A stretch of 64,000 bases of DNA from an uncultured Acidobacteriota bacterium (GCA_963805975.1 CAWDVR010000002.1:192001-256000); one strand, 5' to 3'. Counted from the first letter of the stretch, positions 12,102 through 60,945 are shown. Notes: generated by a model from the letters alone, not told the origin. Numbers and translations: made by a program.

Positions 12102-12914
12102 CTAGCCGATCGTGACGGTGATACCGGCGGCTTCCAAGTCGCCCTTGGCTGCCTCCGATTTCGCCTTCGCGCTGCCCACTCCCTGCGGCTGATAGTAGTG
12201 GCCGGCGCTCACGGAGATCGAGATGCTCTTGTAGCCGAGCCCCTTGAGAAAGCCCACCAGCCCGATCAACCTCTCCGTGCAGCCCGTGGTGTTGCGCTTC
12301 CCGCAGGTCCCGCGCTTCGTGCTGCAGGGGCTGGCGGTCAGCTCGTTGATCACCAGATGCATCTTCGCGTCCTTGGCCATCGAATCGATGACCGCCTTCA
12401 GCGTGTCCGACGGTTCGGGAGGGTACTTCCCCAGGCCGATCCAGAAGGCGCAGTGCTCGACGAAGTCCACGCACGCATCCTCGGCGTGCTCGGTGTCCTC
12501 GGTGAACGTGTACTTCTTGCTCCAGGCGTCGCCCACCGAGTACCCGTTGACCGTGGCCTTGAGCGAGACCGAGCCGTAGCCGGTCGGCACCTTGAGCTCG
12601 TCGAACCCCATCTCGCCAGTCCCGAGCATGCGCTGCACGGCAAAGGAGTGACGAGCTCGGTGCGTCGCGGGCTGGCGGCCCGTGGAAGCGGCGGCTCCGG
12701 CTCCCTTCGCCTGGGCCGCCGACACCACCGCCCGCAGGTGCGCCGCCGGGCCGACCTTGGCTTGCACGAGCGAGCCCACGGCGCGCTGGACATGAGGCGC
12801 CACGACCCGCGCGGCACCCGGCGCCTGCTTCGCCTGAAAAGCCCCCGACACCGCCTTCTGGACGTGCGCGGCCATGGCTTTGGAAGGGGCTTTCGGCTCG
12901 CGCTCCGGCGGCAT
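12102..12914 (-). CDS. Putative zinc-dependent (AID/APOBEC-like) deaminase effector with repeated N-terminal leader
   Basis: HxE ('EHAED') and 'SPC....C' Zn motifs; 'ISISVSAGHYY' and 'GDLEAAGITVTI' parallel the AID strand4/RLY and 'GL..L..AGV.I' elements; GGAG RBS. Confidence 0.7.
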   Translation of the reverse strand: MPPEREPKAPSKAMAAHVQKAVSGAFQAKQAPGAARVVAPHVQRAVGSLVQAKVGPAAHLRAVVSAAQAKGAGAAASTGRQPATHRARHSFAVQRMLGTGEMGFDELKVPTGYGSVSLKATVNGYSVGDAWSKKYTFTEDTEHAEDACVDFVEHCAFWIGLGKYPPEPSDTLKAVIDSMAKDAKMHLVINELTASPCSTKRGTCGKRNTTGCTERLIGLVGFLKGLGYKSISISVSAGHYYQPQGVGSAKAKSEAAKGDLEAAGITVTIG

Positions 12915-12985
12915 CGACAGATCTCCGATCAGATGAGACTCACTTCGTAGGCAGGCTCGACACTACTCCCCGACTCGGTCGACGT

Positions 12986-14302
12986 TCAAGCGGTGCTCTT
13001 CGACCCCTCTCCGCCTCCGCTCTCCTCCACCGCGTCCGCCAGCTCCTCGACCGAGCGCAGCTTCCGACTGGTGGCGGCGAGGGCCGTGGTGAGGAGGAGC
13101 AGCGCGCCGAGCACCATCGCGAAGAGGGCCACGCCGCGGCCGGGGCCGGTGCCGATCGCGGAGCCGAGGCTCGCGGCGAGCGCGCCGTCCGGCGCGAGCA
13201 GCGGCTCGAAGACGTAGTCGGCGAGCGGTCCGGCGAGGAGCGAGGCGAGCGGCACGGCGACCAGCGCCACGGTGCGCCGCAACGCGAAGACGCGGCCCTG
13301 CAGGTCGGCCGGCACCTTGCTCTGCCAGATCGCCTGGCTGCACGCGCTGATGACGGAGAAGGCACCCAGGAAGACGGCGGCGGCGGCGGCGATGTAGATC
13401 GCGTGGGGCCGCATGCCGGCCGCGATCAGCGCCAGGCCCTGCACCGCGAGCGCCGCGAGGATGCCTGCCAGGCGCCGCCTGGGCCCACCCCACACCGCCA
13501 TGACGATGCCTCCGACGATCAGGCCGGCGCTCGCCACCGACATCACCTTGCCGAGCACGGCCATGTCCGCGAAGCCGAGCACCATGGGCTGGAGCAGCAC
13601 CACCACCATGCCCATCGCGAAGTTGGAGAGGACGAAGAGCACCAGCAGGCCGAAGAGGCCGGGCCGTTCCCGGATGTAGCGCCAGCCCGAGGCGATCTCC
13701 GCGCCGAGCGTGCCGCGGCTCCCGGCGCCCGCGGTGCTCGGCGGCGGCGCCGGGATGGCGAGCGGCAGCAGCACGAGGAGCGCGACCACCGACGCCGCCA
13801 CCTCGGTGAGGGCCACGCCCCGCAGGCCCGCCCGCGCCACCAGCACCGCGGCGACCAGGGGCGCCAGGGCCTGGGCCGCGGTGAGCCCGAGCTGCAGGAG
13901 GCCGCTGGCGCGCCCGTAGTGCCGCTTGGCCACCAGCACGGTGACCGAGGAGGCGAGGGCCGGCCAGCGCAGCGACTGGAAGCAGCCGGACACCACCAGC
14001 AGCGCGTAGATCGGCACCACGGGCAGAGGCTCGCGGCCGACCAGCAGCACCATGGCGACGGCACAGGCGCCCGCGCCGGCCACGGAGATCATCATCGCCC
14101 GGCGGCGGTCCCAGCGGTCCACGAGGGCGCCGGCCACCGGGGACATCAGGACCACGGGAACGGTGGTGAAGAAGGAGACCAGCGCCAGGCGGGTGACGGA
14201 GCCGCCGGCCTGGTAGGCGGAGACGCCGAGCGCAAAGGCCGTGGCGTAGTTGCCGAAGGCGCAGAGGATCTGGGAGAGCCAGACGGCGAGGAAGGTCGGC
14301 AT
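12986..14302 (-). CDS. MFS transporter (DHA3/MefA-like exporter) of the NRPS-PKS cluster
   Basis: 'MPTFLAVWLSQ', 'AGALVDRWDRRRAM' and 'QSKVPADLQGRVF'; ~12 hydrophobic segments; own ATG at 14302, just after the TE stop at 14308. Confidence 0.88.
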   Translation of the reverse strand: MPTFLAVWLSQILCAFGNYATAFALGVSAYQAGGSVTRLALVSFFTTVPVVLMSPVAGALVDRWDRRRAMMISVAGAGACAVAMVLLVGREPLPVVPIYALLVVSGCFQSLRWPALASSVTVLVAKRHYGRASGLLQLGLTAAQALAPLVAAVLVARAGLRGVALTEVAASVVALLVLLPLAIPAPPPSTAGAGSRGTLGAEIASGWRYIRERPGLFGLLVLFVLSNFAMGMVVVLLQPMVLGFADMAVLGKVMSVASAGLIVGGIVMAVWGGPRRRLAGILAALAVQGLALIAAGMRPHAIYIAAAAAVFLGAFSVISACSQAIWQSKVPADLQGRVFALRRTVALVAVPLASLLAGPLADYVFEPLLAPDGALAASLGSAIGTGPGRGVALFAMVLGALLLLTTALAATSRKLRSVEELADAVEESGGGEGSKSTA

Positions 14303-14307
14303 GGGGC

Positions 14308-18321
<4,014 letters not shown>

Positions 18322-18325
<4 letters not shown>

Positions 18326-21300
18326 CGCGCCTCGCCGAGCTGGGAGAAGACCTCCTCGAGCTCCGCGCCCTCCAGGCTGACGCCGGCGACGTCCTCGCCG
18401 GCGGTCGCCGCCGCCGAGCCGGCCGGCGCGCTGCTCTCGAGCAACGCATCGAGGGGCGCCACCAGGACCGCCAGCTCGGCGATCGTCTGGTGCTCGAAGA
18501 GCTGCTCGGGCGACAGCTCGAGGCCGGCGTCGTTGGCGCGGGCCACGAGCTGGATGCCCATCACCGAGTCGCCGCCCAAGTCGAAGAAGTTGTCGTGGAT
18601 GCCGATCTGCTCGATGCCGAGCGAGCCCTTCCAGATCTCGGCCAGCTTCTCCTCCATCGGGTTGCGCGGCGCCATGTAGGCCGTGGACAGGCTCGGCCGC
18701 GCGTGGGACGAGCGCTTCGCCTGGACGCCGTCGCCGCGCCCGGCGAGGCTGGCGCGGGTGAGCGAGTTGACCTGCTCGAAGAGCGCCGCCAGGTCCTTCG
18801 AGGTGGTGGCGAGCTGCGCGAAGCTGTGGTCCTTCGCCAGCACCCGGCGCAGGGCTTCGACGCCCTCGTGCGGCAGGATGCCACTGCCGGCGTCGGGATC
18901 GAAGGCGGCATCCGTTGTTGCTCCCGGGGCCGGGGTGGCCGCCGGGCGCGCCGGCTGGGCCGCAGGCTCGCCCTCGGCCGGAGCTGAAGGCTGGCGACCG
19001 GTCGCTTCCGCGGAGCGGCGCAGGGTGTCCACCGCCTCGCCCACCCGCTTCAGGGTGAACTGGTCGATGCGCACCAGCTCCTCGCCGCTCTCGTCGAGCA
19101 GCGACACGTCGACCGACAGGGTCTCCTTGCCGCCGCCGGGCTCGCCCTGCCGGCGCAGATAGCTGTAGATCTTGGCCGGCAGCGGCTTCCTCATCTCCAG
19201 GCGCTTGTAGGAGAGCGGCAGGAAGTTGCCTTCCTCGATGAAGCCGAGGATGCCGGTGGCGACGTCCACCAGCGCCGGGTGGAGGCCGAAGCTCCCCGCC
19301 TCGGCCGCGAACTCCTCCGGCAGCTCGAGCACCGCCAGGGCCTCGCCCTTCCCGGCCGCTCCCATGTGCACGCGCTTGAGGCTCTGCCAGCGCGGCCCCC
19401 AGCGCACCACCCCGCCCTCGCCCATCATCACCGGCTCGTTGAACTCCACCACCTGGTCCGCGCAGCGGGCGAGGAGCTCCTCGATGTCGAAGCGCGGGGC
19501 CGCTTCCCCTGCCGGAGCGGGGGCCGGGCCCACCTTGCCGCGCACGTGCGCGGCCCAGGTCGCCTCGGCACCGGCGGTCTTCGGCGGCCCCTTGCTGGCG
19601 ACGCGGAAGCTGAAGCCGTTGCCCTGTTTCTCGAGCGTGGTGCGCACCTCCTTGCTCTCCCCGTCGGCCAGCATCAGGGGCCCGAGGAAGAACACGTCAC
19701 GCAGCTCGACACCGCCCAGGCCGCCGTGCTGCTCGAAGACCGCCGCGTGGTGCGCGTAGGCGGCACGGGCGATCTCGAGATAGGTGGTGCCGGGGACCGT
19801 GGCGGTGCCCAGCACGCGGTGCTCGGCCGCCACCCAGTGGCGGTCGGTCGAGAAGTCGGTGGTGTAGATCGCTTCCGCCGCGGTCTCGAAGGTCGAACGG
19901 TCGAGCAGCGGGTGGAGCGGCACTAGGGTCGGTGGTCCGCCGGCCGCCGGGCTGCCGGCCGCCGCTGCGCCGCCGGGGATCAGGCCGGCGTCCACCGCCA
20001 TGCCCACCTCCCCCCAGGCGCCCCAGTTGATCGAGATCACCCGCGTGCCGTTGGCGCCGGAGCCGTTGGTGCCAGAGCGCGCTTGCGCGTAGGCGTCGAG
20101 GAAGGAGTTGGCGGCGCAGTAGTCCACCTGCCCGAGCCCGCCGGCGAGCGCGATGGTCGACGAGCAGAGCACGAAGAAGTCGAGCTTCTGGCCGGCGAGC
20201 GCCCGTTCGAGCATCAGCGTGCCGCGGAGCTTGGGCGCCAGCACCGTCGCCGCGGTCTCGGGCGACTTGAGCTGCAGCAGCCCTCGTCCGGCGACGCCGG
20301 CGGCGTGGATCACGCCGTCGATGCGCCCGAAGCGGGCCAGCGCCTGGTCCACGGCGGCGCGCACCTGGGCCTCGTCTCCCACGTCGGCGCTCACCACCTC
20401 CACCTCGGCGCCCATCGCTTCCAGCTCCTTCAGCTTCAGGAGCCGGCGGCTGATGCGGTCGCGCTCGCCGTGCTTGCCGATCCAGGCCTCCCACTCGGCG
20501 CGAGGCGGCAGCGCCGAGAAGCCCATCGGCACCAGCCGCGCCTGGAAGTCGCGGGCCAGGAACTCGGCGAAGGTCAGGCCGATGCCGCCCAGGCCGCCGG
20601 TGACGAGGTAGACGCCCTTCTTCTTGAAATGCAGGCCGGAGGGACCGACCGGCGCGAGCTTCACCGGCTCGTAGGCCCGCACCCAGCGGTCCTCGCCGCG
20701 CCAGGCGACGATCGGCGCCACCACCGGCACCTCGGCCATCTCGGCGAGCAGGCGGTCCACCAGGGCCGCATCCTCCACCGCTCCCGAGGCCGGCAGGGCG
20801 AGGTCGATCGCCACCACGCGCAGGTTGGGGTACTCCTGCGGGATCACCCGCGCCGGCCCCTGGAGTGCCGCCTTCTCCGGCGCGAGATAGCTCTCGCCGT
20901 GGACGCGGTGCAGGTTGTTCGACACCACGCCGATCGCGATCGGCTGCCGCGCCCCGGCCCGGCCCACCGCCTGGGCGAAGAAGAACAGGCTCCAGAAGCT
21001 CCGCGCCTCGGCCTCGATCATGGCCTCCGGCGAGAGCTCGGGGAGGGCCTCGGTCACGTTCCAGAGATGGAGCGCGCGGGGCGGCACGCCGCCGTCCGCG
21101 GCCAGATCGGCGAGCAGAGCGTCGTACTCCCTGGCGCCGCCGGGGGCGAGCGTGTAGGCGCCGCTCCCGAGCTTGGCGAAGCTCTCGCCGGGCACCACCG
21201 TGGCGACGCGGTGGCCCAGGCCACGGAGGCGCGTGACGACCTGGTCCGCCAGCCCGCGGCCATCCGCGAACACCAGCCACGAGGCCGGCTCGGCCTCCGG

Positions 21301-24124
21301 CTCTGCGCCGGCCGCCGGCTCGCTTCCTGCGGCCCACGCCGCGGGCAGGGCCGGCGGCCCGGACGGCTTCCAGTACGGGGCATAGAACCAGTCCGCGATG
21401 TCCTCGTTCTTCTTCGCCACCTTGGGGCCGGCGAGCGCGGACAGGTCGCCGGGCTCCACCCAGTAGCGCTGGCGCTCGAAGGCGTAGCCGGGCAGCGAGA
21501 CGCGGCGGCGCTTCTCGCGCCGGTAGAGCTTCGCCAGGTCGACGCCCACACCGGCCGCCCACAGCTCGCCCAGCGAGCGCAGCGCGAAGGCCAGGTCGTT
21601 CAGCTTGTCCTTGGGATGGCGCAGCGAGGAGAGCGCCGGCTGCTCCTTGGCGCGGGCCGGGTGCTGGCGCGCGAAGGTGGCGAGCGTCTTGCCGGGCCCC
21701 ACCTCGAGCAGGCAGCGGGCGGGCTCCTTGAGCAGCTCCGCCAAGCCGTCCGAGAAGCGCACCGCCTGTCGCAGGTGCCGGGCCCAGTAGGCCGGGTCGG
21801 TGGCCTCGGCGGCGGTGATCCAGGTGCCGGTGACGTTCGAGACGTAGGGGACCTTCGGCGCCTGGAGCTCGATGCCGGCGAACTCCTGGAGGAACGGCGC
21901 CAGGATGGGCTCCATCATCGGCGAGTGGAAGGCGTGCGAGGTGCGCAGGCGCGAGGCCGCCACACCTTTCTCCTTGAGCCGGCGCTCCAGCTCCTCGATG
22001 CCGGAGTCCGGGCCCGAGGCGACCAGCCGGTTGGGCGCGTTGAGGGTCGCGATCGACAGCCCCTCGGGCAGCACCGCGGCGAGCTCCTCCTCGGTGAGCG
22101 GCACGCCCACCATCGAGCCGCGGGGCAGGCCGTGCATCAGCCGGCCGCGGGCCGCCACCAGCTTGAGCGCCTCGGCCAGGGTGAAGACGCCGGCGACGGT
22201 CGCCGCCACGTACTCGCCGATCGAGTGGCCGATCATCGACTCGGGCTCGATCCCCCAGCTCATCCACAGCCTGGCCAGCGCGTGCTCGATCACGAACAGC
22301 GCCGGCTGCGTGACGTGGGTCTCGGCGAGCTTCTTCTCCGCCTCCTCGGTCGCGCCCTCGGGGTAGAGCACCTGGCGCAGATCGAAGCCGAGATGAGGCG
22401 CCAGCAGCTCGCAGGCGCGGTCGATCTCCGCCCGGAACACCGGCTCGCTCTCGTAGAGCCCTCGGCCCATGTTGGGGTACTGCGCGCCCTGGCCGGAGAA
22501 CAGGAAGGTGACCGGACGGTTCTTGCCGTTGACCACGGCGGTCGCCGAGCTGTCGCGGTCGAGGGCCCGGAGCGCGCGCACCGCGTCCTCGTGATTCTCG
22601 GCGACCACCACCCGCCGCACGTCGAACGGCCGCCGGCCGATCGCCAGCGTGTAGGCCGCGTCGGCGAGCGGGAGCTCGCGGTGAGCGTCCAGGTACGACG
22701 CCAAGCTGCCGGTCATCTGCTCGAGGGCCTCCTGCGAGCGGGCCGAGAGCACCAGGAGCTGCCGCGGCCGCGAGGGGCCGGAGGGCGGCCGGGCCGGCGC
22801 CTCCTCGACGATGACGTGCGCGTTGGTGCCGCCGACGCCGAAGGCCGAGATCCCCGCCCGCCGCGGCACGCCGTCCGCCACCTCCCAGGGCCGGTGCTCG
22901 GTGTTGACGTAGAAGGGGCTCTCCGGCAGGTGGCACTCGGGGTTCGGCTCGTCGAACAGCAGGCTGGCCGGGATCTCCTTGTGCTCCAGAGCCAGCACCG
23001 TCTTGATCAGGCTGGCGGCACCGGCCGCGGCGCCGAGATGGCCGATGTTGGTCTTCACCGAGCCCAGGGCGCAGAAGTTCTTCTTCTGCGTCTGCTCGCG
23101 GTAGACGCGGGAGAGCGCCGTGACCTCGATCGGGTCGCCCATCTGGGTGCCGGTGCCGTGGGCCTCCACGTAGCCCATGGTCTCCGGGTGCACCTCGGCG
23201 GTGAGCATCGCCGCCCGCACCACGCGGGTCTGGCCGTCGACGCCCGGCGCCGTGAAGCCGACCTTCTGGGCGGCGTCGTTGGTGACCGCCGAGCCGCGGA
23301 TGATGGCGCGGATGGCATCGCCGGCGGCCAGCGCGTCGTCCAGCCGCTTGAGCACCACCACTCCCACGCCGCTCGAGAACATGGTGCCGCGGGCCTTGGC
23401 GTCGAAAGTGCGGATGTGGCCGTCCGGCGAGTAGATCTGGCCCTCGGTGTGCTGGAAGCCGACCTCCGGCACGCGGATGCCCACGCCGCCGGCGAGCGCG
23501 ATGTCGCAGTCGCCGGAGAGCAGGCCCTGGCCGGCCAGGTGCACCGCGACCAGCGCCGTCGAGCAGGCGGTCTGCACCGTGATGCTGGGCCCGCCCAGGT
23601 CGAGCTTGTAGGAGACCCGCAGGGCCACGTAGTCCTTGTCGTTGGCCACCTGCACCGTGAAATCGCTCACCTCGGCGACCAGCGCCGGGTTGGAGTAGAG
23701 GTTGTTGAGGTAGCCGGGCATGCGCGCCCCGGCGTAGACGCCGACCACGCCGGAGAAGCGCTCGGTGTCGTAGCCCGCGTCCTCGAGCGCGTGCCAGGCG
23801 CTTTCGAGCAGCACGCGCTGCTGCGGGTCGATGACCTCGGCCTCGCGCGGGCTGATGCCGAAGAAGCCGGCATCGAACCACTCGTTCTTGGAGAGCTCGC
23901 GCGCCGCCTTGACGTAGCCGGGGCCGTGGAGCTGGCGCGGGTCGGCGCCGCGCGCCAGGAGCTCCGCGTCGGTGAAGAAGGTGAGCGTCTCGACGCCCTG
24001 CTTCAGGTTGTTCCAGAAGGTCTCGAGGTCGTCGGCGCCGGGGAAACGGCCCGCCATGCCGACGATCGCCAGCTCGAGACCCGTCCGCTCCTCCGAACCA
24101 GGCTGCTCCTGGGGGGTGTCTGTC

Positions 24125-24147: not shown

Positions 24148-39795
<15,648 letters not shown>

Positions 39796-49183: not shown

Positions 49184-50197
<1,014 letters not shown>

Positions 50198-50317
50198 CGC
50201 GTTTCTCGGCTTCGCCCGATCGTCACGCTCGATCGCAATTGGGAGAAGGATCGGTCAAAAGCTATCACCAGGGCTCGGGAGCGTCAATCAAGTCGCTGAC
50301 AGGTAAACGTTTCCGTC

Positions 50318-51046
50318 TCAAGTGTAGAGCGCGAGAAAGCGGTCCAGCAGCCGGTCCGACTCGGGGCTGGGCCGGAGCTGGGCGTCGAAGGTGGCCACCG
50401 CCTCGTCGCCGCCCGGCAGGTAGTCGCGGTAGACGCGCACCCGGGCCCGCATGTCGGGCTCGGACATCTCGCTGTGGAACTGCGAGCCGTAGGCCGGCTT
50501 GCCGGCGACGCGCACGAGCTGGTGGCGGCAGCGCTCGCTCGAGGCCAGGGTGAGGAGGCCGGCAGGCGCCTGGTCGATGCGGTCCTTGTGCCCGAGCTGG
50601 ATGGCGAAGCGCTCGGGCAGGCCGGCGGTGAGCGGGTCGCCGCGGCCGGCTTCGGTCAAGAAGGCATCGAAGGTGCCTACCTCTGCAGTCGCCTCGTCGG
50701 TGATCACCGTGCCGCCCAGGACGTGGCCCAGGAACTGGTGCCCCCAGCAGGAGCCGAAGAACGGCCGCTCGTCGTCGATCAGGCGCCGCACCACGCCGGC
50801 GAGCGGCGCCGTGAACTCGTACTCCTGGGTCACCGAGTGCGAGCCGGCGCCGCCCAGGATCACGGCGTCGGCGCCCTCGGTGTCCTGGTAGCGGATGGCT
50901 GGGCGCTCGGTGACGTTGTAGACCATGAGCTGCGCGCGGGATATCCGGCAGCGCTCGAGCACGCAGCCGCGCTCCTGCTCGGCCGCCACCGGATGGTCGC
51001 GCACCTGGATGAGGAGGAGCCTGACCTGCTCTCGTGGCTTCGCCAT
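50318..51046 (-). CDS. Type 1 glutamine amidotransferase (GMP-synthase-like)
   Basis: 'GSCWGHQ' nucleophile elbow and 'QFHSE'. Confidence 0.85.
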   Translation of the reverse strand: MAKPREQVRLLLIQVRDHPVAAEQERGCVLERCRISRAQLMVYNVTERPAIRYQDTEGADAVILGGAGSHSVTQEYEFTAPLAGVVRRLIDDERPFFGSCWGHQFLGHVLGGTVITDEATAEVGTFDAFLTEAGRGDPLTAGLPERFAIQLGHKDRIDQAPAGLLTLASSERCRHQLVRVAGKPAYGSQFHSEMSEPDMRARVRVYRDYLPGGDEAVATFDAQLRPSPESDRLLDRFLALYT

Positions 51047-51868
51047 CTACTTGCTCACCAGCTCGCCGGCGCGGCGGCTCGCCTCGACGATGGTCTTGAT
51101 CAGCGTCACCCGCAGGCCGCCCTCTTCGAGCTGCAGAATGCCGTCGATGGTGCAGCCGGCGGGCGTGGTGACGGCGTCCTTGAGCTGCGCCGGGTGCTGG
51201 CCGGTCTCGAGCACCATGCGGGCGGCGCCCAGGCAGCTCTGCGCCGCGAGCTCGGTCGCGATGTTCCGCGGCAGGCCCACCTTGACGCCGCCCTCGGCCA
51301 GCGCCTCGATGACGATGTAGATGAACGCCGGGCCGCTGCCCGAGAGGCCGGTGACCGCGTCGAAATACTTCTCGTCGAGCACCAGGGCGCGGCCCAGGCG
51401 CTCGAACGCGCCGTTGGCCAGGGCGAGCTGCTCCGGGCTCGTCCACCGGCCGCCGCAGAGCACGGTCATGCCGGCGCCGATGAGCGCCGGGGTGTTGGGC
51501 ATGGCCCGCACCACCGGCACCGATGCCGCCAGGCGCTGCTCGATGAACGACGTCGAGACGCTGGCCAGGATCGAGAGCACGAGCTGGCGCGGCTCGAGCA
51601 CGTCCCTGAGCTCGGCCAGGAGGCCCTCCGCGCCCTGCGGCTTGACGCCCAGGAGCACCACGTCCGCGCCGGCCGCGGCCTCCCGGTTGTCGAGCGTGGT
51701 GGCGACGCCGAGCTCGCGGCCCACGGCCTCCAGCCGCTCGGCATGGCGGGCGGTGGCGACCACCGACCCGCGCTCGACCACGCCGGATTCGATCCAGGCG
51801 CGGGCGAGGGTCGAGCCCATCTTACCGGCGCCAAGGATGGCCAAACGTCCCAGTCGTGTCGTGCTCAT
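51047..51868 (-). CDS. proC: Pyrroline-5-carboxylate reductase
   Basis: 'ILGAGKMG', 'GVKPQ', 'RAMPNTP', 'SGSGPAF' and 'VTTPAGCT'; start MSTTR at 51868. Confidence 0.93.
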   Translation of the reverse strand: MSTTRLGRLAILGAGKMGSTLARAWIESGVVERGSVVATARHAERLEAVGRELGVATTLDNREAAAGADVVLLGVKPQGAEGLLAELRDVLEPRQLVLSILASVSTSFIEQRLAASVPVVRAMPNTPALIGAGMTVLCGGRWTSPEQLALANGAFERLGRALVLDEKYFDAVTGLSGSGPAFIYIVIEALAEGGVKVGLPRNIATELAAQSCLGAARMVLETGQHPAQLKDAVTTPAGCTIDGILQLEEGGLRVTLIKTIVEASRRAGELVSK

Positions 51869-51941
51869 GGTCGTAGATCCTGGAGCCAAACGGCCGGCAC
51901 AGGCTTCTGACGGCCGGCACAGGTCCGGCCGTCTGGCTTTC

Positions 51942-52847
51942 TCATTCGCGGCCGCCGGCGAGCATCGCCTTGAGCACGTGGCCCGCGACCTCGGGGTTCT
52001 CGCGCAGGCGGCGGATCGAGTACGGGTACCAGTCGACGCCGTAGGGCACGTAGACCCGGAGCCGATGACCCTGCTCGAGGAGGATCGAGCGCAGGCCCTC
52101 GTCCACCCCCAGGAGCATCTGGAACTCGTAGCGGTCGCGCGGCACGCCCAGCTTGTCGACCAGCGCCGTCGCCGCGCAGGCCAAGTGCTCGTCGTGGGTC
52201 GCAATGCCGACGTAGACGCCGCGGGTCAAGAGCTTCTCGAGCGCCGAGACGAAGTTCCAGCGCACCGTGTCGTAGCCCTTCCAGGCCACCCGCCGCGGCT
52301 CGATGTAGATGCCTTTGCACAGCCGCACGTTGGCGCCCTGGGCGGGCAGCTCGTCGATGTCCTTCAAGGTACGCCGCATGTAGGCCTGGAATACCACCCC
52401 CAGGTTGCCGTGGCGCTCGAACAGGCGGCGGTAGATGCGGAGCGTGGAGTCCGTGGTCGAGGCGTCCTCCATGTCGATGCGCACGAAGTTGCCGCGCTCC
52501 TTGGCGGCGACCACCAGGCGCTCGATCGAGGCCTCACAGAATCCCTCGTCGATCTTCAGGCCCAGCATCGTCGGCTTGATCGACACGTTCGAGTCCAGGC
52601 CCTGGGCCGCGATCTCCTCCAGGCAGCGCAGGTACTCTTCCACCGAGGCCTCGGCCTTGGCGCGCTTCGAGACCTCCTCGCCGAGCACGTCCAGCGTCGC
52701 CATGGCGCCCTGGGCGTTCAGGCGGCGGACGGTGGCGAGCGCTTCCTGGCGGGTGGAGCCTGCCACGTAGCGGGCGGCCACCCGGCCGACGATGAACTTC
52801 GGCACCAGCGGCAGCGTGGTGACGACCAGCCGGGAGAAGAGGCTCAT
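51942..52847 (-). CDS. Proline dehydrogenase (monofunctional)
   Basis: 'RYVAG', 'SIKPT', 'IDMED', 'RLCKGIY', 'ATHD', 'EFQMLLG' and 'YVPYG..WYPY..RR..E'. Confidence 0.92.
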   Translation of the reverse strand: MSLFSRLVVTTLPLVPKFIVGRVAARYVAGSTRQEALATVRRLNAQGAMATLDVLGEEVSKRAKAEASVEEYLRCLEEIAAQGLDSNVSIKPTMLGLKIDEGFCEASIERLVVAAKERGNFVRIDMEDASTTDSTLRIYRRLFERHGNLGVVFQAYMRRTLKDIDELPAQGANVRLCKGIYIEPRRVAWKGYDTVRWNFVSALEKLLTRGVYVGIATHDEHLACAATALVDKLGVPRDRYEFQMLLGVDEGLRSILLEQGHRLRVYVPYGVDWYPYSIRRLRENPEVAGHVLKAMLAGGRE

Positions 52848-52898
52848 CGGGCGGTCGCGACGGTCCGGGGAGGCGGTTCTCGGTAACGGGGACGGCTG

Positions 52899-54254
52899 CT
52901 AGGGCGCGACGGCCACGGCGGCCGGTGGAGAAAGGGCCGCGACCGGCGGCTGCAGGTCGTCCACCACCCAGCGCACGGCGCGCGAGCACGGGCAGGTGCC
53001 GCCCACCCGGGCGAGGGCCGGCATCTGGGCCGCCGCCTGCTCCGGCGTGCGCTCGCCGGAGACCACCGTGCGCAGCGCCGCCACGTAGTCCTTGAAGTCC
53101 TTGCCGGCGAGATAGGGCTCGGGGAGCGATGCCCTGAGGTGCGCGAGGTAGGTCTCGAGGCTGTCGTAGGTCTCGCCGCGCGTGCCGGCGAGGGTGAAGG
53201 CGGGAACGCCGCGGCGGCGGCAGAAAGACGGGTGTGGTGCCCGGAGCAGGTCGTCGTGGGACACGCCCTGCTCGCTCCCGCCGTCGGCCAGCAGGCGCTT
53301 CAGGAGCGCGTCCGCCTCCTCGCGGGAGAGCTCGGGGCAGCGCGCCCGCACGTAGCGCTGGTTCAGGTCGTGGATCAGCTTCTCCACCTCGGCGAAGTAC
53401 TGGCCTTGCGCCTCGGCGTTCTTCATCGGCTTCAGGCCCATGCGCACGTTGCTTCCGCCGCCGCGCTCGTCGCCGAACATCTCGAGGCCGCGCGGCAGCC
53501 ACTTGTTGAAGGCGCGCTGCAGGGTGTCCATGGTGACGAAGACCTCGCCCTTGGCCGCCTCCTTCACCCAGCGCCGCATCGGCACCACGCCGGCCGCCAG
53601 GTGGAAGGCCTCCTCGCGCAGCATCGGGGGCATGCTCTCGGCCATCGGCTTGTAGGCCGAGACCTGCTGCATGGCGAGCTGGTACTTGCCCACGCGGTCG
53701 ATCAGCGCGCAGAAGACCACGCTGTCCACGAAGCTGTCGAAGGCGATGTTGAAGGCGCCCAGGATGTGCGAGCCGGTGCGCATGGAGAGGATCTCCTCCA
53801 CCATCTCGGCGCCGGTCTCCTTGGACACGCAGGTCCAGTCGTCCTCGAGCAGCAGGTGCAGCATCTGGTAGCCGTGGCGCAGCTCCTCGGCCATCATGCG
53901 CAGGATCCAGATCTGCTCCTCTTCCTCCTGTGCGCGGGCGAGCACCTCGCGGTGCTGCTGGATCGAGCCGAACTCGGTCGAGGCCTGGGCGCGGATGGCC
54001 CCCAGGAGATGATGCGCCTGCTCCGGGCGCAAGTCCTGGGCGCGGGTGCGCTTGGGCTGGCCCTGCTGATCACCGCACTCGATCTCGTCGCAGATCCCCA
54101 GCTCGCGGTAGGCGCAGAGCTCGAACGGCTTGTCGTTGGGGAAGTAACGGTCCCAGTTCTCGACCAGGAACGGGTAGTCGGTGAGGTAGGTGTCCCGCCA
54201 CTTCAAGACCGCGTTGTGAAAGGGCTTGGGCAGGCTCTGGGAACGGGTGCGCAT
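52899..54254 (-). CDS. Ferritin-like diiron protein, BoxB/PaaA (aryl-CoA epoxidase)-like
   Basis: 'QASTEFGSIQQ', 'EELRHG', 'GAFN', 'DRVGKYQL' and 'MLREEAFH' match the BoxB layout; start MRTRSQ at 54254 with AAGGAG RBS. Confidence 0.75.
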   Translation of the reverse strand: MRTRSQSLPKPFHNAVLKWRDTYLTDYPFLVENWDRYFPNDKPFELCAYRELGICDEIECGDQQGQPKRTRAQDLRPEQAHHLLGAIRAQASTEFGSIQQHREVLARAQEEEEQIWILRMMAEELRHGYQMLHLLLEDDWTCVSKETGAEMVEEILSMRTGSHILGAFNIAFDSFVDSVVFCALIDRVGKYQLAMQQVSAYKPMAESMPPMLREEAFHLAAGVVPMRRWVKEAAKGEVFVTMDTLQRAFNKWLPRGLEMFGDERGGGSNVRMGLKPMKNAEAQGQYFAEVEKLIHDLNQRYVRARCPELSREEADALLKRLLADGGSEQGVSHDDLLRAPHPSFCRRRGVPAFTLAGTRGETYDSLETYLAHLRASLPEPYLAGKDFKDYVAALRTVVSGERTPEQAAAQMPALARVGGTCPCSRAVRWVVDDLQPPVAALSPPAAVAVAP

Positions 54255-54292
54255 CGCGTCTCCTTGACGACTGCTGACAGGCGCCGGCTGAC

Positions 54293-54787
54293 TCAAAGGT
54301 GCTTGACCAGCGGCCGCAGGCCGCCGGCCTCGAAACCGACGCTGGCGAAGAAGCGGGCCAGGTCGCCGCGCTCGGCCTCGACCAGGGTGCGGACCACGGC
54401 CGCGTCCCGGCGGCGGAAGTGGGCGAACATGGCCTCGGCCAGGCGCTGGCCGATGCCCAGGCCGCGGCACGAGGGATCGACGCCCAGAACCTCCACCCAG
54501 CCGGTGGGCTCGTCGAGACCGAACTCCCCCGACCGCACCTCGCCCAACATGAACCCCACCACCCTGCCTGCCAATTCCGCCACCATCGAGGCGTCCGGGT
54601 CGCGGCGGAGGTAATACGCCAGCCGGCGCTCCCAGACCTCCGGCCGGTAGGCGCCGCCGATCTGCTCGTCGATCCCGGTGATGGCGTCGAGGTCGAGCTC
54701 GTTGGCCGGACGCACGAGAACGTCTGTGCTCAGGGTCTCGCTATTGGGGGTCTCCGTGTCGGGGGTCACCGTGGTGGGGGTCGCCAT
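54293..54787 (-). CDS. GNAT family N-acetyltransferase
   Basis: 'LGVDPSCRGLGIGQRL' acetyl-CoA motif; 'FFASVGF'. Confidence 0.85.
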   Translation of the reverse strand: MATPTTVTPDTETPNSETLSTDVLVRPANELDLDAITGIDEQIGGAYRPEVWERRLAYYLRRDPDASMVAELAGRVVGFMLGEVRSGEFGLDEPTGWVEVLGVDPSCRGLGIGQRLAEAMFAHFRRRDAAVVRTLVEAERGDLARFFASVGFEAGGLRPLVKHL

Positions 54788-54869
54788 GGCGGGATTGTAC
54801 CCGCCCCGCTCGACCCGGAGCAACGAAGCGGCAAGTGTTGCAGTCCGAGCCGGGCTCGCCGGCCCAGGA

Positions 54870-55070
54870 TCAGGTCTTGTCGATCTGGATGCTCGACTTG
54901 GTGCCGCCGTTGGCGACCGCGACCATGATCCCCAGGCCGAGGGCGATGATCAGGCCGATCACCGTCCAGGTAGTCCCGATATTGGCCAGCACGCCCGTTT
55001 TCCACAGCGCGGCGAGGATGCCGAGCACCACAATGACGTATCCGGCGAGATATAGACCAGTCCATTTCAT
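54870..55070 (-). CDS. Small two-TM membrane protein (66 aa)
   Basis: MKWTGLYLAGYVIVVLG...; GGAGG RBS; two hydrophobic helices. Confidence 0.7.
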   Translation of the reverse strand: MKWTGLYLAGYVIVVLGILAALWKTGVLANIGTTWTVIGLIIALGLGIMVAVANGGTKSSIQIDKT

Positions 55071-55227
55071 TTCTGCCTCCTCTGGATCGTAACGACACCA
55101 TTCCCGGGTCGTGACCGCTGGGGAGCGGGAGAAGCAAGGCGCGCGCCAGGCGCCCGGCTCCTTGAACGGCGGGGGAGGCCGAAGGTATCCTGCGAACGGC
55201 ATGGGGGATCTGGCGCACCGCAAGGAC

Positions 55228-56310
55228 ATGACGCACTGGAAGGAGAGCGCGGAGATCCTCTCCCGGCTCGGGTCCCTGGCTGCGGCGGGCCGGCGGGCCG
55301 CGCTCGCGACCGTGGTCCGCATCTCGGGCTCCGCCTACCGGCGGCCCGGTGCCAAGCTCCTCGTAGAAGACGAGGGTCACACTCTCGGCAGCGTGAGCGG
55401 CGGCTGCCTCGAAGCAGACGTGCGCGAGATCGCCCAGGCCGTGCTCCTCTCGGGCGAGCCGCGCCTGCGGCACTACGACACCGGCAGCCACGAGGACATG
55501 GTCTGGGGCCTCGGGCTGGGGTGCAACGGCGAGATCGACGTCTTCGTACAGCCGGCGACGGAGGGTCCGCTCGCGGCCCTGGCCCACCCTCTCTCGACGC
55601 TTCTCGCGGGCGATTCGCCGTTCGCCGTCGCCACGGTGGTCGAAGGCGGCCGCCAGGCGGGCGAGGCCCTGGTCGTCGGGACGGGCGAGACCCATGGCTC
55701 GCTGGGCTCCGCGGAGCTCGACCACCTGGCCGTCGAGTGGGCCCTCCGGCCGGGCAGGGCGGGCCTCTCGGACCTCTACCCGCTCGGCGACCGGCTGGTG
55801 TTCTTCGAGCACCTGGCGCCACCGCTCCACCTCGCGATCTTCGGCGCCGGGGACGATGCCATGCCGCTCGCCGCCTACGCCGCGGACGCCGGCTTCCGCG
55901 TCACAGTGCTGGACCACCGTCCGGCCCTCCTGTCGCCGGCGCGTTTCCCCCAGGCCACCAGGCTCGTCGAAGGGCGGCCGGACGGCACCCTCGAGCTCTC
56001 GAACCCGGCCCGCACGCTCGCCGTGATCAAGACCCACTCCCTCGCTCACGACCGCGAATGGGCGCGGCGCCTGCTCGCGGCCGGCGTGCCGTACGTGGGT
56101 CTGCTGGGGCCGCGGGCGCGCACCGCGGACCTGCTGCGCGACATCGGCGCCGAGGGCGACGAGCGGGTCTTCGGACCCGTGGGCCTCGACCTCGGTGCCG
56201 AGGGCCCGCACCAGATCGCCATCGCCGTCGTGGCCGAGCTCCTCGCCTTCAGCGCCGGGCGGGAGCCACGGCATCTCTCGCAGCGGCACGAGGCGGCCCA
56301 TGCACGATGA
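55228..56310 (+). CDS. XdhC/CoxI family molybdenum-cofactor maturation factor
   Basis: 'GSAYRRPGA', 'GSVSGGCLE', 'GLGCNG', 'YVGLLGPR.R' and 'PVGLDLGA'. Confidence 0.9.
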   Translation: MTHWKESAEILSRLGSLAAAGRRAALATVVRISGSAYRRPGAKLLVEDEGHTLGSVSGGCLEADVREIAQAVLLSGEPRLRHYDTGSHEDMVWGLGLGCNGEIDVFVQPATEGPLAALAHPLSTLLAGDSPFAVATVVEGGRQAGEALVVGTGETHGSLGSAELDHLAVEWALRPGRAGLSDLYPLGDRLVFFEHLAPPLHLAIFGAGDDAMPLAAYAADAGFRVTVLDHRPALLSPARFPQATRLVEGRPDGTLELSNPARTLAVIKTHSLAHDREWARRLLAAGVPYVGLLGPRARTADLLRDIGAEGDERVFGPVGLDLGAEGPHQIAIAVVAELLAFSAGREPRHLSQRHEAAHAR

Positions 56311-56905
56311 AGCGCCGCCGGTCGCCGGCGTGCTGCTCGCCGCGGGAACCTCGAGCCGCATGGGGGTCAACAAGCTCCTGCTGAAGATCGCCGGCGAGAC
56401 CGTGCTGCGGCGAACGGCGCGACGGGCGCACGCGGCCGGGCTCTCACCCCTCCTGGTGGTGCTCGGTCACCAGGCCGGGGAAGCGAGCCGGGAGCTCCTC
56501 GGGCTGGAGTGCCGAGAGGTGCAGAACCCCGGTTACGAGCAGGGCCTGGGCTCGTCCCTCGCGGCCGGCTTCTCGGCCCTCCCCGCGACCGCGCCGGCCG
56601 CGGTCGTCCTGCTGGCCGACATGCCGTTCGTCACCGCGGACATGCTGGCCGCGCTCGTCGCCCGCTACCGCGCGACCCGGGCCCGGCTCGTGCTGTCCGA
56701 CTACGAAGGGGTGCCCGCTCCACCGATGCTCTACGACCGCTCTCTCTTCGCCGAGCTGCGGGCGCTGGCGGGAGACGAGGGCGGCCAGCGCGTGGCGGAG
56801 CGCCACCGGCACCAGGCGGAGGTGCTCCGCTGGCCCGCCGCCGCGCTCGCCGACCTCGACCTGCCGCAGGACTACGAGCGCCTGGCCGCCGGGGCCGCGC
56901 CATGA
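56300..56905 (+). CDS. Molybdenum cofactor cytidylyltransferase MocA-like nucleotidyltransferase
   Basis: 'LAAGTSSRMG.NKLL', 'LADMP' and 'DLD.PQDY'. Confidence 0.88.
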   Translation: MHDEAPPVAGVLLAAGTSSRMGVNKLLLKIAGETVLRRTARRAHAAGLSPLLVVLGHQAGEASRELLGLECREVQNPGYEQGLGSSLAAGFSALPATAPAAVVLLADMPFVTADMLAALVARYRATRARLVLSDYEGVPAPPMLYDRSLFAELRALAGDEGGQRVAERHRHQAEVLRWPAAALADLDLPQDYERLAAGAAP

Positions 56906-57792
56906 AACCGGAGATCGCGGCCCTCGAGGCGGCCATGGAGCGGCAGGGGTACATCGCCGACCCGGCGATCGCCACCGCTCTCTTCCTGGCCACGGAGATG
57001 CGCCGGCCGCTGCTGATCGAGGGCGATGCCGGGGTGGGCAAGACCGAGATCGCCAAGGTGCTGGCACGGCACTTGGGCACCGAGCTGATCCGCCTCCAGT
57101 GCTACGAGGGCCTGGACGTCTCGACCTCGCTCTACGAGTGGAACTACCAGCGCCAGTTGCTCGCCCTGCGGCTGGCCGAAGGCGCGGGCCGGAGCGCGGG
57201 CGAGATCGAGCAGAAGATCTTCGGCCGCGAGTACCTGCTCGAGAGACCGCTCCTCGCCGCCATCTCCCGCCGCGAAGGCCCGCCAGTGCTGCTGATCGAC
57301 GAGGTGGACCGCGCGGACGACGGCTTCGAGGCCTTTCTGCTGGAAGTGCTCTCCGACTTCCAGGTCACCATCCCCGAGCTGGGCACGATCCGCGCCGAGC
57401 ACGTCCCCTACGTGGTGCTCACCTCGAACCGCAGCCGCGAGATCGGCGACGCGCTCCGGCGGCGCTGCCTCTACCTCTACCTCGAGCACCCCTCGCTCGA
57501 GAAAGAGGTGCGCATCCTCCACGCGCGGGTGCCCGAGGCCGGGGCGCGGCTCGCGGAACAGATCGGCCGCTTCATGCAGTCGCTGCGCGCCCGGCGGCTC
57601 AACAAGGCGCCGGGGGTCGCCGAGACCCTCGACTGGGCGCGGGCCCTGGTACACCTCGGCCGCGATCGCCTCGACCGCGAAATCGTGGAGCAGACGCTCG
57701 GCGTGATCCTGAAAGACCACCGCGACCTCGCCGAGCTCTCCGGGGGCGAGCTGGAGAAGACGCTCGCGGTGGCGGGCGCGGAAGCGGGATGA
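56902..57792 (+). CDS. MoxR/CoxD-type AAA+ ATPase
   Basis: 'EGDAGVGKT', 'RLQCYEG', 'LLIDEVDR' and 'DALRRRC'. Confidence 0.9.
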   Translation: MKPEIAALEAAMERQGYIADPAIATALFLATEMRRPLLIEGDAGVGKTEIAKVLARHLGTELIRLQCYEGLDVSTSLYEWNYQRQLLALRLAEGAGRSAGEIEQKIFGREYLLERPLLAAISRREGPPVLLIDEVDRADDGFEAFLLEVLSDFQVTIPELGTIRAEHVPYVVLTSNRSREIGDALRRRCLYLYLEHPSLEKEVRILHARVPEAGARLAEQIGRFMQSLRARRLNKAPGVAETLDWARALVHLGRDRLDREIVEQTLGVILKDHRDLAELSGGELEKTLAVAGAEAG

Positions 57793-58928
57793 GCGCGGCG
57801 GGCGACATGACCGAGCCCCCCCTCGTCACTCACCTGGCCCTTTTCGGGCGTGCGCTCCGGCAGCGTGGAGCGCGGGTGAGCCTGAGCGACGAGGCGGATG
57901 CGCTCGAAGCGCTCACCCTGGTGGATTTGGTGGACCGCGACGAGGTGCGCCGCGCCCTGCGGGTGTCGCTCAAGATCCGGCCGCGGGATCTGGCGGCCTT
58001 CGAGGAGCTCTTCGCGCGCTTCTGGGAGAGCTTCGAGGAGCCGGCCGGAGGCCCCATGCCCTGGCCGGCGGCGAGCGTCCCCACTCGTCTCACGCCCGGG
58101 GCCGGTCGGCCTTCTGGCAAGGCAGAGCCCGGCCGCGAGCGCGAGGTGCCCACCGGCGAGGAGATCGGCTACAGCCCGGAGGCGGTGCTGCGCGGCAAAC
58201 CGTTCACGGACTGCTCCGCGGCGGACCTCGCTGCCATGGAGCGGCTGATGGCCCGGCTGGTGCTGCGGGTCGCGACCCGCCCCAGCCGCCGGCTCGTTCC
58301 GAGCCGCGGGCCGGGCGTGCCCGACCTGCGGCGCAGCTTCCGCAAGGCCCTCTCCCACGGCGGCGAGATCCTGACCCTGGCCCGGAGGCGCCGGGCGGTC
58401 GAGAGACCGCGCCTGGTGGTGCTCTGCGACACCAGCGGTTCCATGGACCCCCATGCGCGGTTCCTGCTCGCCTTTGTCCTGGCGCTCCGGCGCGTGGCGA
58501 GCCGGAGCGAGATCTTCGCCTTCAACACCACCCTGGTGCGGCTCACGCCCTGGCTGCGGCCCGGCCAGGTGGACCTGACCCTGGCGCGCCTGGCCTCCGG
58601 CGTCCCGGACTGGTCGGGCGGCACGCGGATCGGTGAGTGCCTGGCGGCCTTCGAGGAGCAGTATCTCCCCACCCTGGTGGACTCGAAGACGGTGGTGCTG
58701 ATCCTCTCGGACGGTCTCGACCGTGGCGACCTCGCGCCGCTCGCGGGCGCCATGAGATCGATCCGGGCCCGCGCCCGGCGAGTGCTGTGGCTCAACCCGC
58801 TGGCCGGCGATCCGCGCTACGAGCCCACGGCGCGCGCCATGGCGGCGGCGCTGCCGTTCGTGGACCGCTTGCTGCCGGCCCACAATCTCGATTCCCTGGC
58901 CAGGCTCCTTCCCCTGCTGACGGCCTGA
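57789..58928 (+). CDS. CoxE-type VWA domain protein
   Basis: 'CDTSGSM' MIDAS, 'WSGGTRIG', 'SDGLD' and 'WLNPL'. Confidence 0.9.
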   Translation: MSAAGDMTEPPLVTHLALFGRALRQRGARVSLSDEADALEALTLVDLVDRDEVRRALRVSLKIRPRDLAAFEELFARFWESFEEPAGGPMPWPAASVPTRLTPGAGRPSGKAEPGREREVPTGEEIGYSPEAVLRGKPFTDCSAADLAAMERLMARLVLRVATRPSRRLVPSRGPGVPDLRRSFRKALSHGGEILTLARRRRAVERPRLVVLCDTSGSMDPHARFLLAFVLALRRVASRSEIFAFNTTLVRLTPWLRPGQVDLTLARLASGVPDWSGGTRIGECLAAFEEQYLPTLVDSKTVVLILSDGLDRGDLAPLAGAMRSIRARARRVLWLNPLAGDPRYEPTARAMAAALPFVDRLLPAHNLDSLARLLPLLTA

Positions 58929-58948
58929 GCGCAACCCAGAGGTGAGAA

Positions 58949-60013
58949 ATGTCGATACCAACCGAACCCATCGGCAGCATTCCTCGCCCGCGCGCCCTGA
59001 TCGAGGGCGTGCGGGCCTTCCAGGCGGGGGGCCTGGCGCAGAAAGAGCTCGATGCGCTCTATGACGCCGCACTTCGCGACACTCTGGAGCGCTTCGCGGC
59101 CACGGGCTCGCCGGTCATCACCGACGGTGAGCAGACCAAGCCCAGCTTTGCCACCTATCCCGTGCACGGGCTCGAGAACCTGGCGCCGGACGGCGCCGTG
59201 ATCCCGTTCGCCGACGCCCACACCCGCCAGCTTCCGCGGCTGACTGCCGGACCTTTCCGCTACCGGACCTATGCCGAGTCCTATCTGACCGCGGCGCAGC
59301 AGCGCACGAGCCTGCCGGTGAAGCAGGCCGTGATCTCGGCCTCGGCGCTCAGCCTGCTCTACCCGCAGGACGAGTTGGAAGGCTACTCTCGCGAGGCCTT
59401 CCTCGACGACCTCCTGAACGAGCACGAGGCCGACATCCGCCGCTGCCTGGCGCAGGGTGCCTACAACGTGCAGATCGACTTCACCGAGGGCCGGCTGGCG
59501 GGGAAGCTCGATCCCAGCGGCGGGCTCCTCAAGAGCTTCGTCGAGCTCAACAACCGCGTCCTGCGGCGCTTTTCGCCAGAAGAGCGGAGTCGGATCGGCG
59601 TCCACACCTGCCCGGGCGGCGATCAGGACTCGACCCACAGCGCGGACGTGGACTACGCGGAGCTGTTGCCCAGCCTGTTCGAGCTCGAAGGCGGCAGCTT
59701 CTACCTCCAGATGGCGAGCGAGAGCGATCGGCCGCGGGTGCTGGGGATCCTCAAGGAGGTTGCGAGAGCGGGGCAACGGCTCTTCGTCGGGGTGACCGAT
59801 CCGATCGATCCCAGGGTGGAGACGCCGGAAGAGGTCTGCGACCGAGTGCTGGAAGCGGCCGAGTACCTGCCGCTCGGTCAGTTGGGCACCACGGACGACT
59901 GCGGCTTCTCGCCGTTCGGCGACGATCTTTCGACCAGCCGCGAGATCGCCTTCGAGAAGATCCGCGCCCGCGTCGCCGGCACGGCCCTGGCGGCCCGGAA
60001 GCTCGGGGTCTGA
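58949..60013 (+). CDS. Cobalamin-independent methionine synthase II family protein (MetE C-terminal-like)
   Basis: 'IGSIPRP', 'ITDGEQ', 'QIDFTE', 'HTCPG' and 'DDCGF' Zn motifs. Confidence 0.85.
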   Translation: MSIPTEPIGSIPRPRALIEGVRAFQAGGLAQKELDALYDAALRDTLERFAATGSPVITDGEQTKPSFATYPVHGLENLAPDGAVIPFADAHTRQLPRLTAGPFRYRTYAESYLTAAQQRTSLPVKQAVISASALSLLYPQDELEGYSREAFLDDLLNEHEADIRRCLAQGAYNVQIDFTEGRLAGKLDPSGGLLKSFVELNNRVLRRFSPEERSRIGVHTCPGGDQDSTHSADVDYAELLPSLFELEGGSFYLQMASESDRPRVLGILKEVARAGQRLFVGVTDPIDPRVETPEEVCDRVLEAAEYLPLGQLGTTDDCGFSPFGDDLSTSREIAFEKIRARVAGTALAARKLGV

Positions 60014-60036
60014 TCGGCCGGAGGCCGAGTGTCGGC

Positions 60037-60945
60037 CTACGCCACTGTGCTGTAGACCGTCCGCCTGTTGTTGCTGGCCCAGGTCACAGTCACCGTGTAG
60101 TTGACGGCGGCCCCGACGGCCGGCCCCAGCAATCCGGTCAACGTCGCCGCTGGGTCGATGACTCGGCTGAAAAGGCCGCCCGCCGCTGCGGCCCCGTTGC
60201 GAGCGAAGCCGAGCGTCGTCGGCGCCCGAGCCGCCGGGTTGCGGTAGAAGCGCGCCCGGCCCCTCATCACGAAGGACCCCCAAGTCGTCCTCAAGACATC
60301 GGTCATGAAGCGCAGAGCCCCAACTCCGTTCCAAGGTATGAGGGAACAGAGCCCGAAGGTATCAGTGCCGCCGTCGCTGACGACCCCGCCGGCGGATACC
60401 GTCCACAGCTCCCAGTAGTGGGTCTCGGTCGCGTGCACCGCACTGGCCGGGTTCTGCACGTAAGCGTTGAGAGCCGCCCCGGCTAGCGGCAAACCTGTGG
60501 CGTAGTTGGTGACGTTGAAGGTGCGCCAGACCTCCTGCACGATGAGCCCCGCCACCGGGTTTGCCACGTTCCAGTCTCTGACCCGCTGGAAGTTGCCGCA
60601 ATAGCCCTCCTGATCCTGAGCGGCATCGTGCACCGCGGTGAGGACCGGGTCCGGCGGTGGCAGCAGTACGAGGGGGGCGGAGACCCTCCTGCGCTTCGCC
60701 GGTGGCGCTCGTGATGGCTGGACGACGGGGGCGGCGGGCTGAAAGGCCCGTCCGGGCGCCGGGGAGAGGAGGCTGGTCTGGATTCGCCCGCCGGGATCTC
60801 GCGTCGCGAGTCGGGCCTGAGCCGCCCCGATCGCCGCCTGGACGTGCGGCGCCAGCCGCGAGCCGCTCACTTCGAGAGCCTTCGGTTGCGCCGGCCGCAG
60901 CGCGGCCTCGACGTGAGGCGCGAGCTCGTGCCGCTTGCCTTGCAC
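60037..60945 (-). CDS. Hypothetical effector-like protein with repeated APHVxAA leader and NLS-like motif
   Basis: 302-aa ORF with 'LAPHVEAALRPAQPK' and 'LAPHVQAAIGAAQAR', then 'PPAKRRRV', then a globular region of unknown family. Confidence 0.6.
   Translation of the reverse strand: MQGKRHELAPHVEAALRPAQPKALEVSGSRLAPHVQAAIGAAQARLATRDPGGRIQTSLLSPAPGRAFQPAAPVVQPSRAPPAKRRRVSAPLVLLPPPDPVLTAVHDAAQDQEGYCGNFQRVRDWNVANPVAGLIVQEVWRTFNVTNYATGLPLAGAALNAYVQNPASAVHATETHYWELWTVSAGGVVSDGGTDTFGLCSLIPWNGVGALRFMTDVLRTTWGSFVMRGRARFYRNPAARAPTTLGFARNGAAAAGGLFSRVIDPAATLTGLLGPAVGAAVNYTVTVTWASNNRRTVYSTVA

Follow-up and report, generated by a model that had tools for sequence, protein, structure and literature searches.

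Two orphan genes share a repeated N-terminal leader

Two genes on the minus strand of the window, a stretch of 64,000 nucleotides from an uncultured Acidobacteriota bacterium (GCA_963805975.1 CAWDVR010000002.1:192001-256000), encode putative effectors that share a short repeated N-terminal leader and carry unrelated C-terminal domains (cargos). The host genome comprises 5.36 Mb at 70% GC, and the nearest named homologues of the window genes come from Thermoanaerobaculia. Below, G labels denote genomes (G000 is the window's own), L labels fetched loci, P labels cluster representatives, and C1 and C12 contigs. The first open reading frame (ORF), 12102..12914, encodes 270 amino acids (aa), has an orthologue with 78% identity in a genome of the same genus, and is an orphan whose neighbour, 434 bp away, encodes a large surface protein. 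A repeat profile placed three leader repeats at 12825..12878 (AAHVQKAV...QAK), 12753..12806 (APHVQRAV...QAK) and 12699..12752 (AAHLRAVV...QAK), and the boundary between leader and cargo reads AVQR (12630..12641). The second ORF, 60037..60945 (302 aa), is also an orphan, with a convergent neighbour 27 bp away; its two repeats lie at 60874..60927 (APHVEAAL...QPK) and 60805..60858 (APHVQAAI...QAR) by the same profile, and its boundary was read as VVQP at 60715..60726. Since this ORF starts at a GTG codon without a clear ribosome-binding site, its exact start is uncertain. A preliminary description of this DNA had quoted both ORFs, the five repeats and the boundaries AVQR and PVVQ, all of which were found in the window. 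It was also right that neither protein has a Sec signal, since no hydrophobic segment resembling a signal was found at either N-terminus (best hydropathy over 9 residues 1.0 and 1.1). Its view of the repeats as helical was only weakly borne out: AlphaFold placed helices on three of the five repeats, but the regions were mostly modelled at pLDDT <65.

The cargo of the first protein (12105..12629) is a CDA/APOBEC-like, Zn-dependent deaminase by its HxE and PC...C zinc motifs and its predicted fold, with putative activity. The residues H143-A-E145, S-P-C197 and C212 are invariant in 13 homologues, which agrees with the earlier deaminase call, and the predicted fold matches APOBEC3A/3G (E 3e-5); a PDB sequence search with the deaminase alignment gave no match. 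The second cargo (60040..60657) was confidently modelled as a beta-rich domain with conserved YWExW and DTFG motifs and belongs to no named family: Foldseek gave no match at E<=0.001 (best VIA Z 5.9, a generic beta-sandwich), and the Atlas search gave none. A basic cluster at the start of this cargo, PAKRRRV (60682..60702), resembles a nuclear localization signal (NLS) by pattern match only, and a paralogue of the cargo domain lies within a leader array on contig C1. Neither window protein matched a Pfam or NCBIfam model, MIX, FIX, RIX, PIX and WHIX included, in libraries that may lack some of these models, and PADLOC, which covers anti-phage defence, gave no match for 13 of 13 proteins. In other organisms DUF4157 is fused to the first cargo in 1 of 13 matches and to the second in 5 of 11. 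Modules have been swapped, since elsewhere both cargos follow DUF4157 or other low-complexity leaders or stand on their own. Homologous cargos (P0006, P0008) carry different, proline-rich repeat leaders.

The leader defines a polymorphic effector family

A hidden Markov model (HMM) built from only the five window repeats retrieved 10 of 50,947 six-frame ORFs at E<0.01, 8 of them outside the window. As a negative control, reversed ORFs gave no match at this threshold (best E 0.2). With a looser pattern, at least two repeats were present in 13 ORFs and in 0 reversed ORFs. Together with the genes added by looser searches, G000 has about 18 leader genes, 3 of which are frameshifted. The repeat has the consensus A-[PA]-H-V-[QA]-x-A-[VLI] and occurs in two to five copies per leader with flexible spacers between; a Q-[AP]-K-type triplet follows the core by 9-10 residues in 153 of 290 repeats. 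All 86 of the 86 aligned repeats have the His, which is in part an effect of selection. In 9 orthologue pairs, which were found via the repeat and so favour the core, the 8-residue core was identical at 137 of 160 positions (86%), compared with 386 of 560 spacer positions (69%) and 76% identity in the cargo. Synonymous change in these pairs was equal in core and spacer (0.28 vs 0.30), and therefore the constraint acts on the protein.

Searching 1.84 billion representatives with the leader profile yielded 97 clusters at 50% identity, one of which (P0237) looks spurious. The first repeat begins within 40 aa of the N-terminus in 86 of the 97; in four clusters it lies beyond 100 aa, and in all four DUF4157 comes first and the repeats directly precede the cargo. 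A VQR-like boundary motif was found in 83 of the 97 representatives. With boundaries set by a heuristic, the 94 cargos longer than 40 aa fall into 80 families, and the median cargo length over all 97 is 183 aa. Pfam names 18 of 96 representatives, among them 6 deaminases, 2 HNH nucleases, 3 papain-like proteases, an ADP-ribosyltransferase and an RNase, while 78 of 96 have no Pfam match; DUF4157 is present in 4 of 96. An Atlas search with the leader returned unnamed clusters and a single weak DUF4157 lead (0.79).

It could be argued that the repeats are a low-complexity coincidence or a functionless relic of duplication, since the leaders are Ala/Pro/Arg-rich in a genome of high GC content and 3 of the 18 leader genes in G000 are frameshifted. 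However, the reversed-ORF controls were empty, the His is invariant with the proviso given above, the core is conserved beyond the spacers, and the distribution over 131 genomes is all-or-none (see below). We consider such an origin extremely improbable, and coincidence is largely refuted. Taken together, these results bear out the preliminary proposal that dispersed genes form one polymorphic family, in which the N-terminal repeat leader is constant and the cargo varies: the model found further proteins, their repeats are N-terminal, and their C-terminal domains are diverse and include toxin-type domains, as in polymorphic toxins. The leader genes are a real, selected, lineage-restricted polymorphic effector family.

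Leader genes occur with the type VI secretion system

G000 contains a full type VI secretion system (T6SS) gene set, two extracellular contractile injection system (eCIS) loci and six DUF4157 genes. We surveyed 61 relatives, 131 genomes of the order and 380 genomes of the phylum, using TssB as the T6SS marker. Six of the 61 relatives were leader-rich (8-37 matches) and the others had 0-1 matches. TssB was present in 6 of 6 leader-rich relatives compared with 11 of 61 overall, and an eCIS tube gene in 4 of 6 compared with 31 of 61 overall. Over the 131 order genomes the spread was all-or-none, with at least 8 leader matches or at most 2, and TssB was found in 7 of 7 leader-rich genomes compared with 16 of 131 overall. 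The seventh of these, G556, was new to the leader model and had not been used in building it. Three genomes of the same family (G153, G154 and G156) have an eCIS and neither TssB nor the leader.

Gene position points the same way: in 6 of the 7 leader-rich genomes the T6SS locus has leader genes within it or next to it. In G152 five leader genes stand in tandem after clpV, followed by a DUF4157 gene with internal repeats; four follow clpV in G155, one or more do so in G133, and leader genes lie near clpV in G151 and G191. One leader gene directly precedes vgrG in both G000 and G152. In G000 the T6SS has 4 of the 18 leader genes within 10 kb, where 0.17 would be expected, but these four are each other's neighbours and hence not independent; 0 of 18 lie near the two eCIS loci (0.28 expected). 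As in T6SS cargo effector classes, the family is confined to T6SS genomes and placed at T6SS genes or vgrG. Of the eCIS and T6SS loci for which the preliminary description had proposed a co-occurrence test, the T6SS is the one to which the data point.

The eCIS and a T6SS-linked DUF4157 subtype

The preliminary description had linked the leader to toxins associated with eCIS of the PVC type; as the main reading, both co-occurrence and gene position favour the canonical T6SS instead. It had also treated QAK and VQR motifs as established markers of such toxins; no such description was found in the literature, yet the motifs are visible in DUF4157 proteins retrieved in this analysis. We compared 133 distinct DUF4157 domains in the fetched loci. 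A subtype with an RVRNPF motif stood beside T6SS genes in 9 of 24 cases and beside eCIS genes in 0, whereas DUF4157 domains without the motif stood beside eCIS-like genes in 45 of 109 cases (19 of these on an ATPase match alone) and beside T6SS genes in 1. Four of the nine T6SS-adjacent cases came from scans not chosen for T6SS. The subtype also occurs as a stand-alone gene (HExxH) in T6SS loci, and it was found in 0 of the 380 phylum genomes. Four weaker DUF4157 matches (142-152 bits) belong to TssB-negative genomes and lack RVRNPF; in two of these genomes they are part of an eCIS locus or adjoin one.

In other organisms the RVRNPF subtype of DUF4157 stands at the end of T6SS loci without the APHV leader (L137:9431-10984 and L142:5157-6515). 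Such loci, and the proline-rich leaders on homologous cargos, may reflect lineage-specific leader dialects.

If the leader were instead a loading sequence of the eCIS, or of the eCIS and the T6SS together, it would be read by a Pvc15-type ATPase, and its clustering with the T6SS would reflect a shared 'weapons' region. The disordered N-terminus, optional DUF4157 and variable C-terminus of the leader proteins do match the architecture of eCIS cargo in the available part of bioRxiv 10.64898/2026.05.27.728243; immunity genes are often absent for eCIS toxins, according to the available part of PMC3482391; G000 has two eCIS loci, and eCIS markers are present in 5 of the 7 leader-rich genomes. However, no leader gene of G000 is placed in or near either eCIS locus (0 of 18), and of the 31 genomes in which an eCIS tube gene was found, 27 have no leader. 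The DUF4157 cargos inside an eCIS locus start differently, with a GNQA motif that is found in 0 of 97 leader proteins. In addition, tube, sheath and Pvc16 all went unmatched in G155, as did tube and Pvc16 in G133; a missing Pvc16 match alone is not proof of absence, because the Pvc16 search matched in no genome. We regard loading by the eCIS as unlikely.

TssM- and TssJ-like genes adjoin DUF4157 genes in G188 (L214-L215) and G595 (L216), two genomes without a TssB match. In G188 a full eCIS cluster immediately precedes them, an arrangement which suggests coupling of an eCIS to a membrane complex of the T6SS type.

A methyltransferase gene beside some leader genes

A gene for a Methyltransf_28 protein with TPR repeats, which we take to be NDUFAF7-like, lies next to a leader gene in three genomes (G000, G133 and G191); 4 of 6 leader-rich genomes carry it, compared with 1 of 55 others. 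The leader could accordingly be the recognition or modification site of this enzyme, or the signal of another secretion route. However, the query was unmatched in the leader-rich G152 and G155, and at 61 methyltransferase loci from other taxa the leader was found in 0 and DUF4157 in 11. With the T6SS and the eCIS as the secretion systems surveyed, we consider this account very improbable. As a general partner of the leader, the methyltransferase was rejected on the same count. The family (L001:7367-8950 on C1 of G000; L053-L113) has more than 1,000 homologues, and its genes in the 11 loci, from several phyla, lie within 8 kb of the DUF4157 genes, often directly upstream. The protein is possibly a cargo-modifying enzyme.

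Immunity genes and likely targets

No small co-oriented gene was found downstream of the 14 of 14 intact leader genes examined in G000 (based on gene-caller output), 7 of which face a convergent neighbour, and the leader array of G152 leaves no gaps between genes for immunity genes. The adjacent immunity gene of polymorphic toxins is therefore not seen here. We scanned the cargos with patterns that we presumed to represent NLSs: NLS-like patterns were present in 11 of 94 cargos, compared with 3.0 in shuffles (maximum 8 of 500) and a background of 18 of 1,465. The lack of visible immunity genes, together with the NLS-like motifs in some cargos, would fit eukaryotic targets such as protists or fungi.

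The lack of adjacent immunity genes, even for DNase- and deaminase-type cargos, would also be explained if the repeats formed an auto-inhibitory or chaperone-binding propeptide that replaces the immunity protein and is removed at VQR, with export specified elsewhere. The stand-alone DUF4157 (HExxH) genes in T6SS loci, and the 4 of 97 representatives in which the repeats come after DUF4157 and directly before the cargo, are in keeping with this. On the other hand, one conserved helix would hardly inhibit about 80 unrelated folds directly, and a propeptide is compatible with a loading signal rather than exclusive of it. As the explanation of the leader, it seems to us improbable, yet auto-inhibition is still a rival to be reckoned with.

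A predicted T6SS loading signal

Because the leader travels with the T6SS, it is likely an address label for injection. We hold with moderate confidence that it is a T6SS loading signal, predicted from sequence, which addresses small orphan toxin-like proteins for injection. Several observations weigh against this. The T6SSs of the seven leader-rich genomes represent about two lineages, so that the Fisher p of 8e-6 for the T6SS link overstates it. The leader is missing from nine of the 16 TssB genomes, among them G160, whose T6SS has the same accessory genes, and the eCIS markers are shared by most leader-rich genomes, as given above. G155, the sole leader-rich genome without a tail marker, is a 360-contig assembly, and G133 has a divergent contractile-tail cluster (L226-L227, C12) with a 774-aa sheath, a 136-aa tube-like gene, gp25, PAAR, baseplate J and Rhs, in which no gp19 or Pvc16 match was found. 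In G000, 14 of 18 leader genes lie away from the T6SS, and tssC and tssF were called as short pieces (assembly error or decay); in G556, no leader gene was found in the 58 kb around the T6SS. Alignments of Hcp, TssC, ClpV and VgrG show no visible leader-specific feature, and the best shared upstream DNA or promoter motif of the leader genes (p 2e-5) is no better than random gene sets can give. Of the nine T6SS-adjacent DUF4157 cases, five come from loci picked for their T6SS, and the excess of NLS-like patterns is smaller when the shuffling is local (mean 5.4; 3 of 300 reach 11). Finally, the known range of the family is narrow, because no leader-rich genome was found among the 380 of the phylum (at most 3 weak matches each), though 44 match TssB.

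In the mechanism that we propose for the loading signal, the leader proteins would be injected via the cell's canonical T6SS, probably into microbial eukaryotes. Every repeat would be a short helix and contribute to multivalent binding of a T6SS component, and loading would most likely be into Hcp rings. The Hcp tube is our first choice because the cargos are small and a single machine, with one VgrG, serves many types of them; as a binding partner Hcp is a plausible but tentative candidate, a ClpV- or DUF4157-type adaptor is a more doubtful one, and VgrG is an unlikely one. The VQR boundary would be the swap point for new cargos and possibly also the place where the T6SS-linked DUF4157 subtype cleaves. 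The combination of disordered leader, optional DUF4157 and variable cargo may have been taken over from eCIS cargo proteins. Perhaps, then, a canonical T6SS captured the addressing logic of the eCIS, with a short repeated linear signal, a dedicated DUF4157 adaptor or peptidase, and dozens of immunity-free, partly nucleus-directed toxins, a scenario we put forward tentatively. If true, the leader would be a portable T6SS signal peptide of about 15 residues.

Neighbouring genes

Downstream of the first leader gene, the surface protein (window 7838-11848; 1,336 aa) has IgGFc-binding, prenyltransferase-like and Cys-rich repeats. Between the two leader genes, a large cluster resembling nonribosomal peptide synthetase (NRPS) and polyketide synthase genes was read from sequence at 12986-47012; its ORF 12986-18325 is an NRPS module that runs into a major facilitator superfamily-like transporter, which looks like a frameshift artefact. 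Frameshifts elsewhere in G000 (L001:8964-12090, L016:6700-7340 and L018:12453-16734) affect three leader genes, the methyltransferase, tssC and tssF, by assembly error or decay. A four-gene leader array includes a 136-aa gene of no Pfam family (L001:10481-10888), and the leader gene at C1:1006.8k begins right after an apparent tRNA 3' end (L002:6700-6800).

Comparison with known systems

The comparisons that follow refer to the available parts of the papers cited. T6SS effectors are said to have no characteristic secretion signal (2026 preprint 10.64898/2026.09.28.754971). The leader motif was not described in the literature searched, PMC6653060 and PMC12210884 included; subscription papers lay outside the search, and supplementary effector tables may list some of the proteins. 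For the T6SS of this uncultured acidobacterial group, almost no literature was found.

The T6SS effector classes MIX, FIX, RIX, PIX and WHIX have N-terminal secretion domains, which are described as loading on the spike (PMC12135965). Like them, the leader proteins combine a constant N-terminus with a variable toxic C-terminus, are encoded partly as orphans and partly beside vgrG, and occur in T6SS genomes only. Unlike these domains, the leader consists of short linear repeats within a disordered region; WHIX effectors also come with immunity genes, whereas none were seen beside leader genes. The Hcp-lumen cargos Tce1 and Tce2 (PMC13323088) are likewise small, in some cases encoded far from the T6SS cluster, and have anti-eukaryotic activity. 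However, they bind Hcp by effector-specific folded surfaces and share no common motif, whereas the leader has a motif and its binding to Hcp is a proposal.

In eCIS cargo, a disordered N-terminus is needed for loading and DUF4157 is dispensable (10.64898/2026.05.27.728243, PMC11297309). AlgoCIS Cgo1/2 and PVC Pdp1/Pnf resemble the leader proteins in their disordered N-terminus, optional DUF4157 and variable C-terminus, and share cargo domains with them. In contrast, the same sources report that signals of eCIS cargo show no sequence conservation and that a Pvc15/Alg15 ATPase loads it, and the leader is a sharp repeat linked to the T6SS. PVC-metallopeptidase (DUF4157) toxins also comprise deaminases, nucleases and peptidases, often without an immunity gene (PMC3482391, PMC8213781); unlike them, most leader proteins lack DUF4157, and the DUF4157 subtype found here lies in T6SS loci, where the domain has been reported earlier as a C-terminal periplasmic toxin (PMC6899460).

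Taken together, the leader is likely a new short linear T6SS cargo leader that is built like eCIS cargo. It marks about 80 cargo families, mostly unnamed, with APOBEC-like deaminases among them, and the sharpness of its 15-residue repeat means that peptides and point mutants could test cargo recognition directly.

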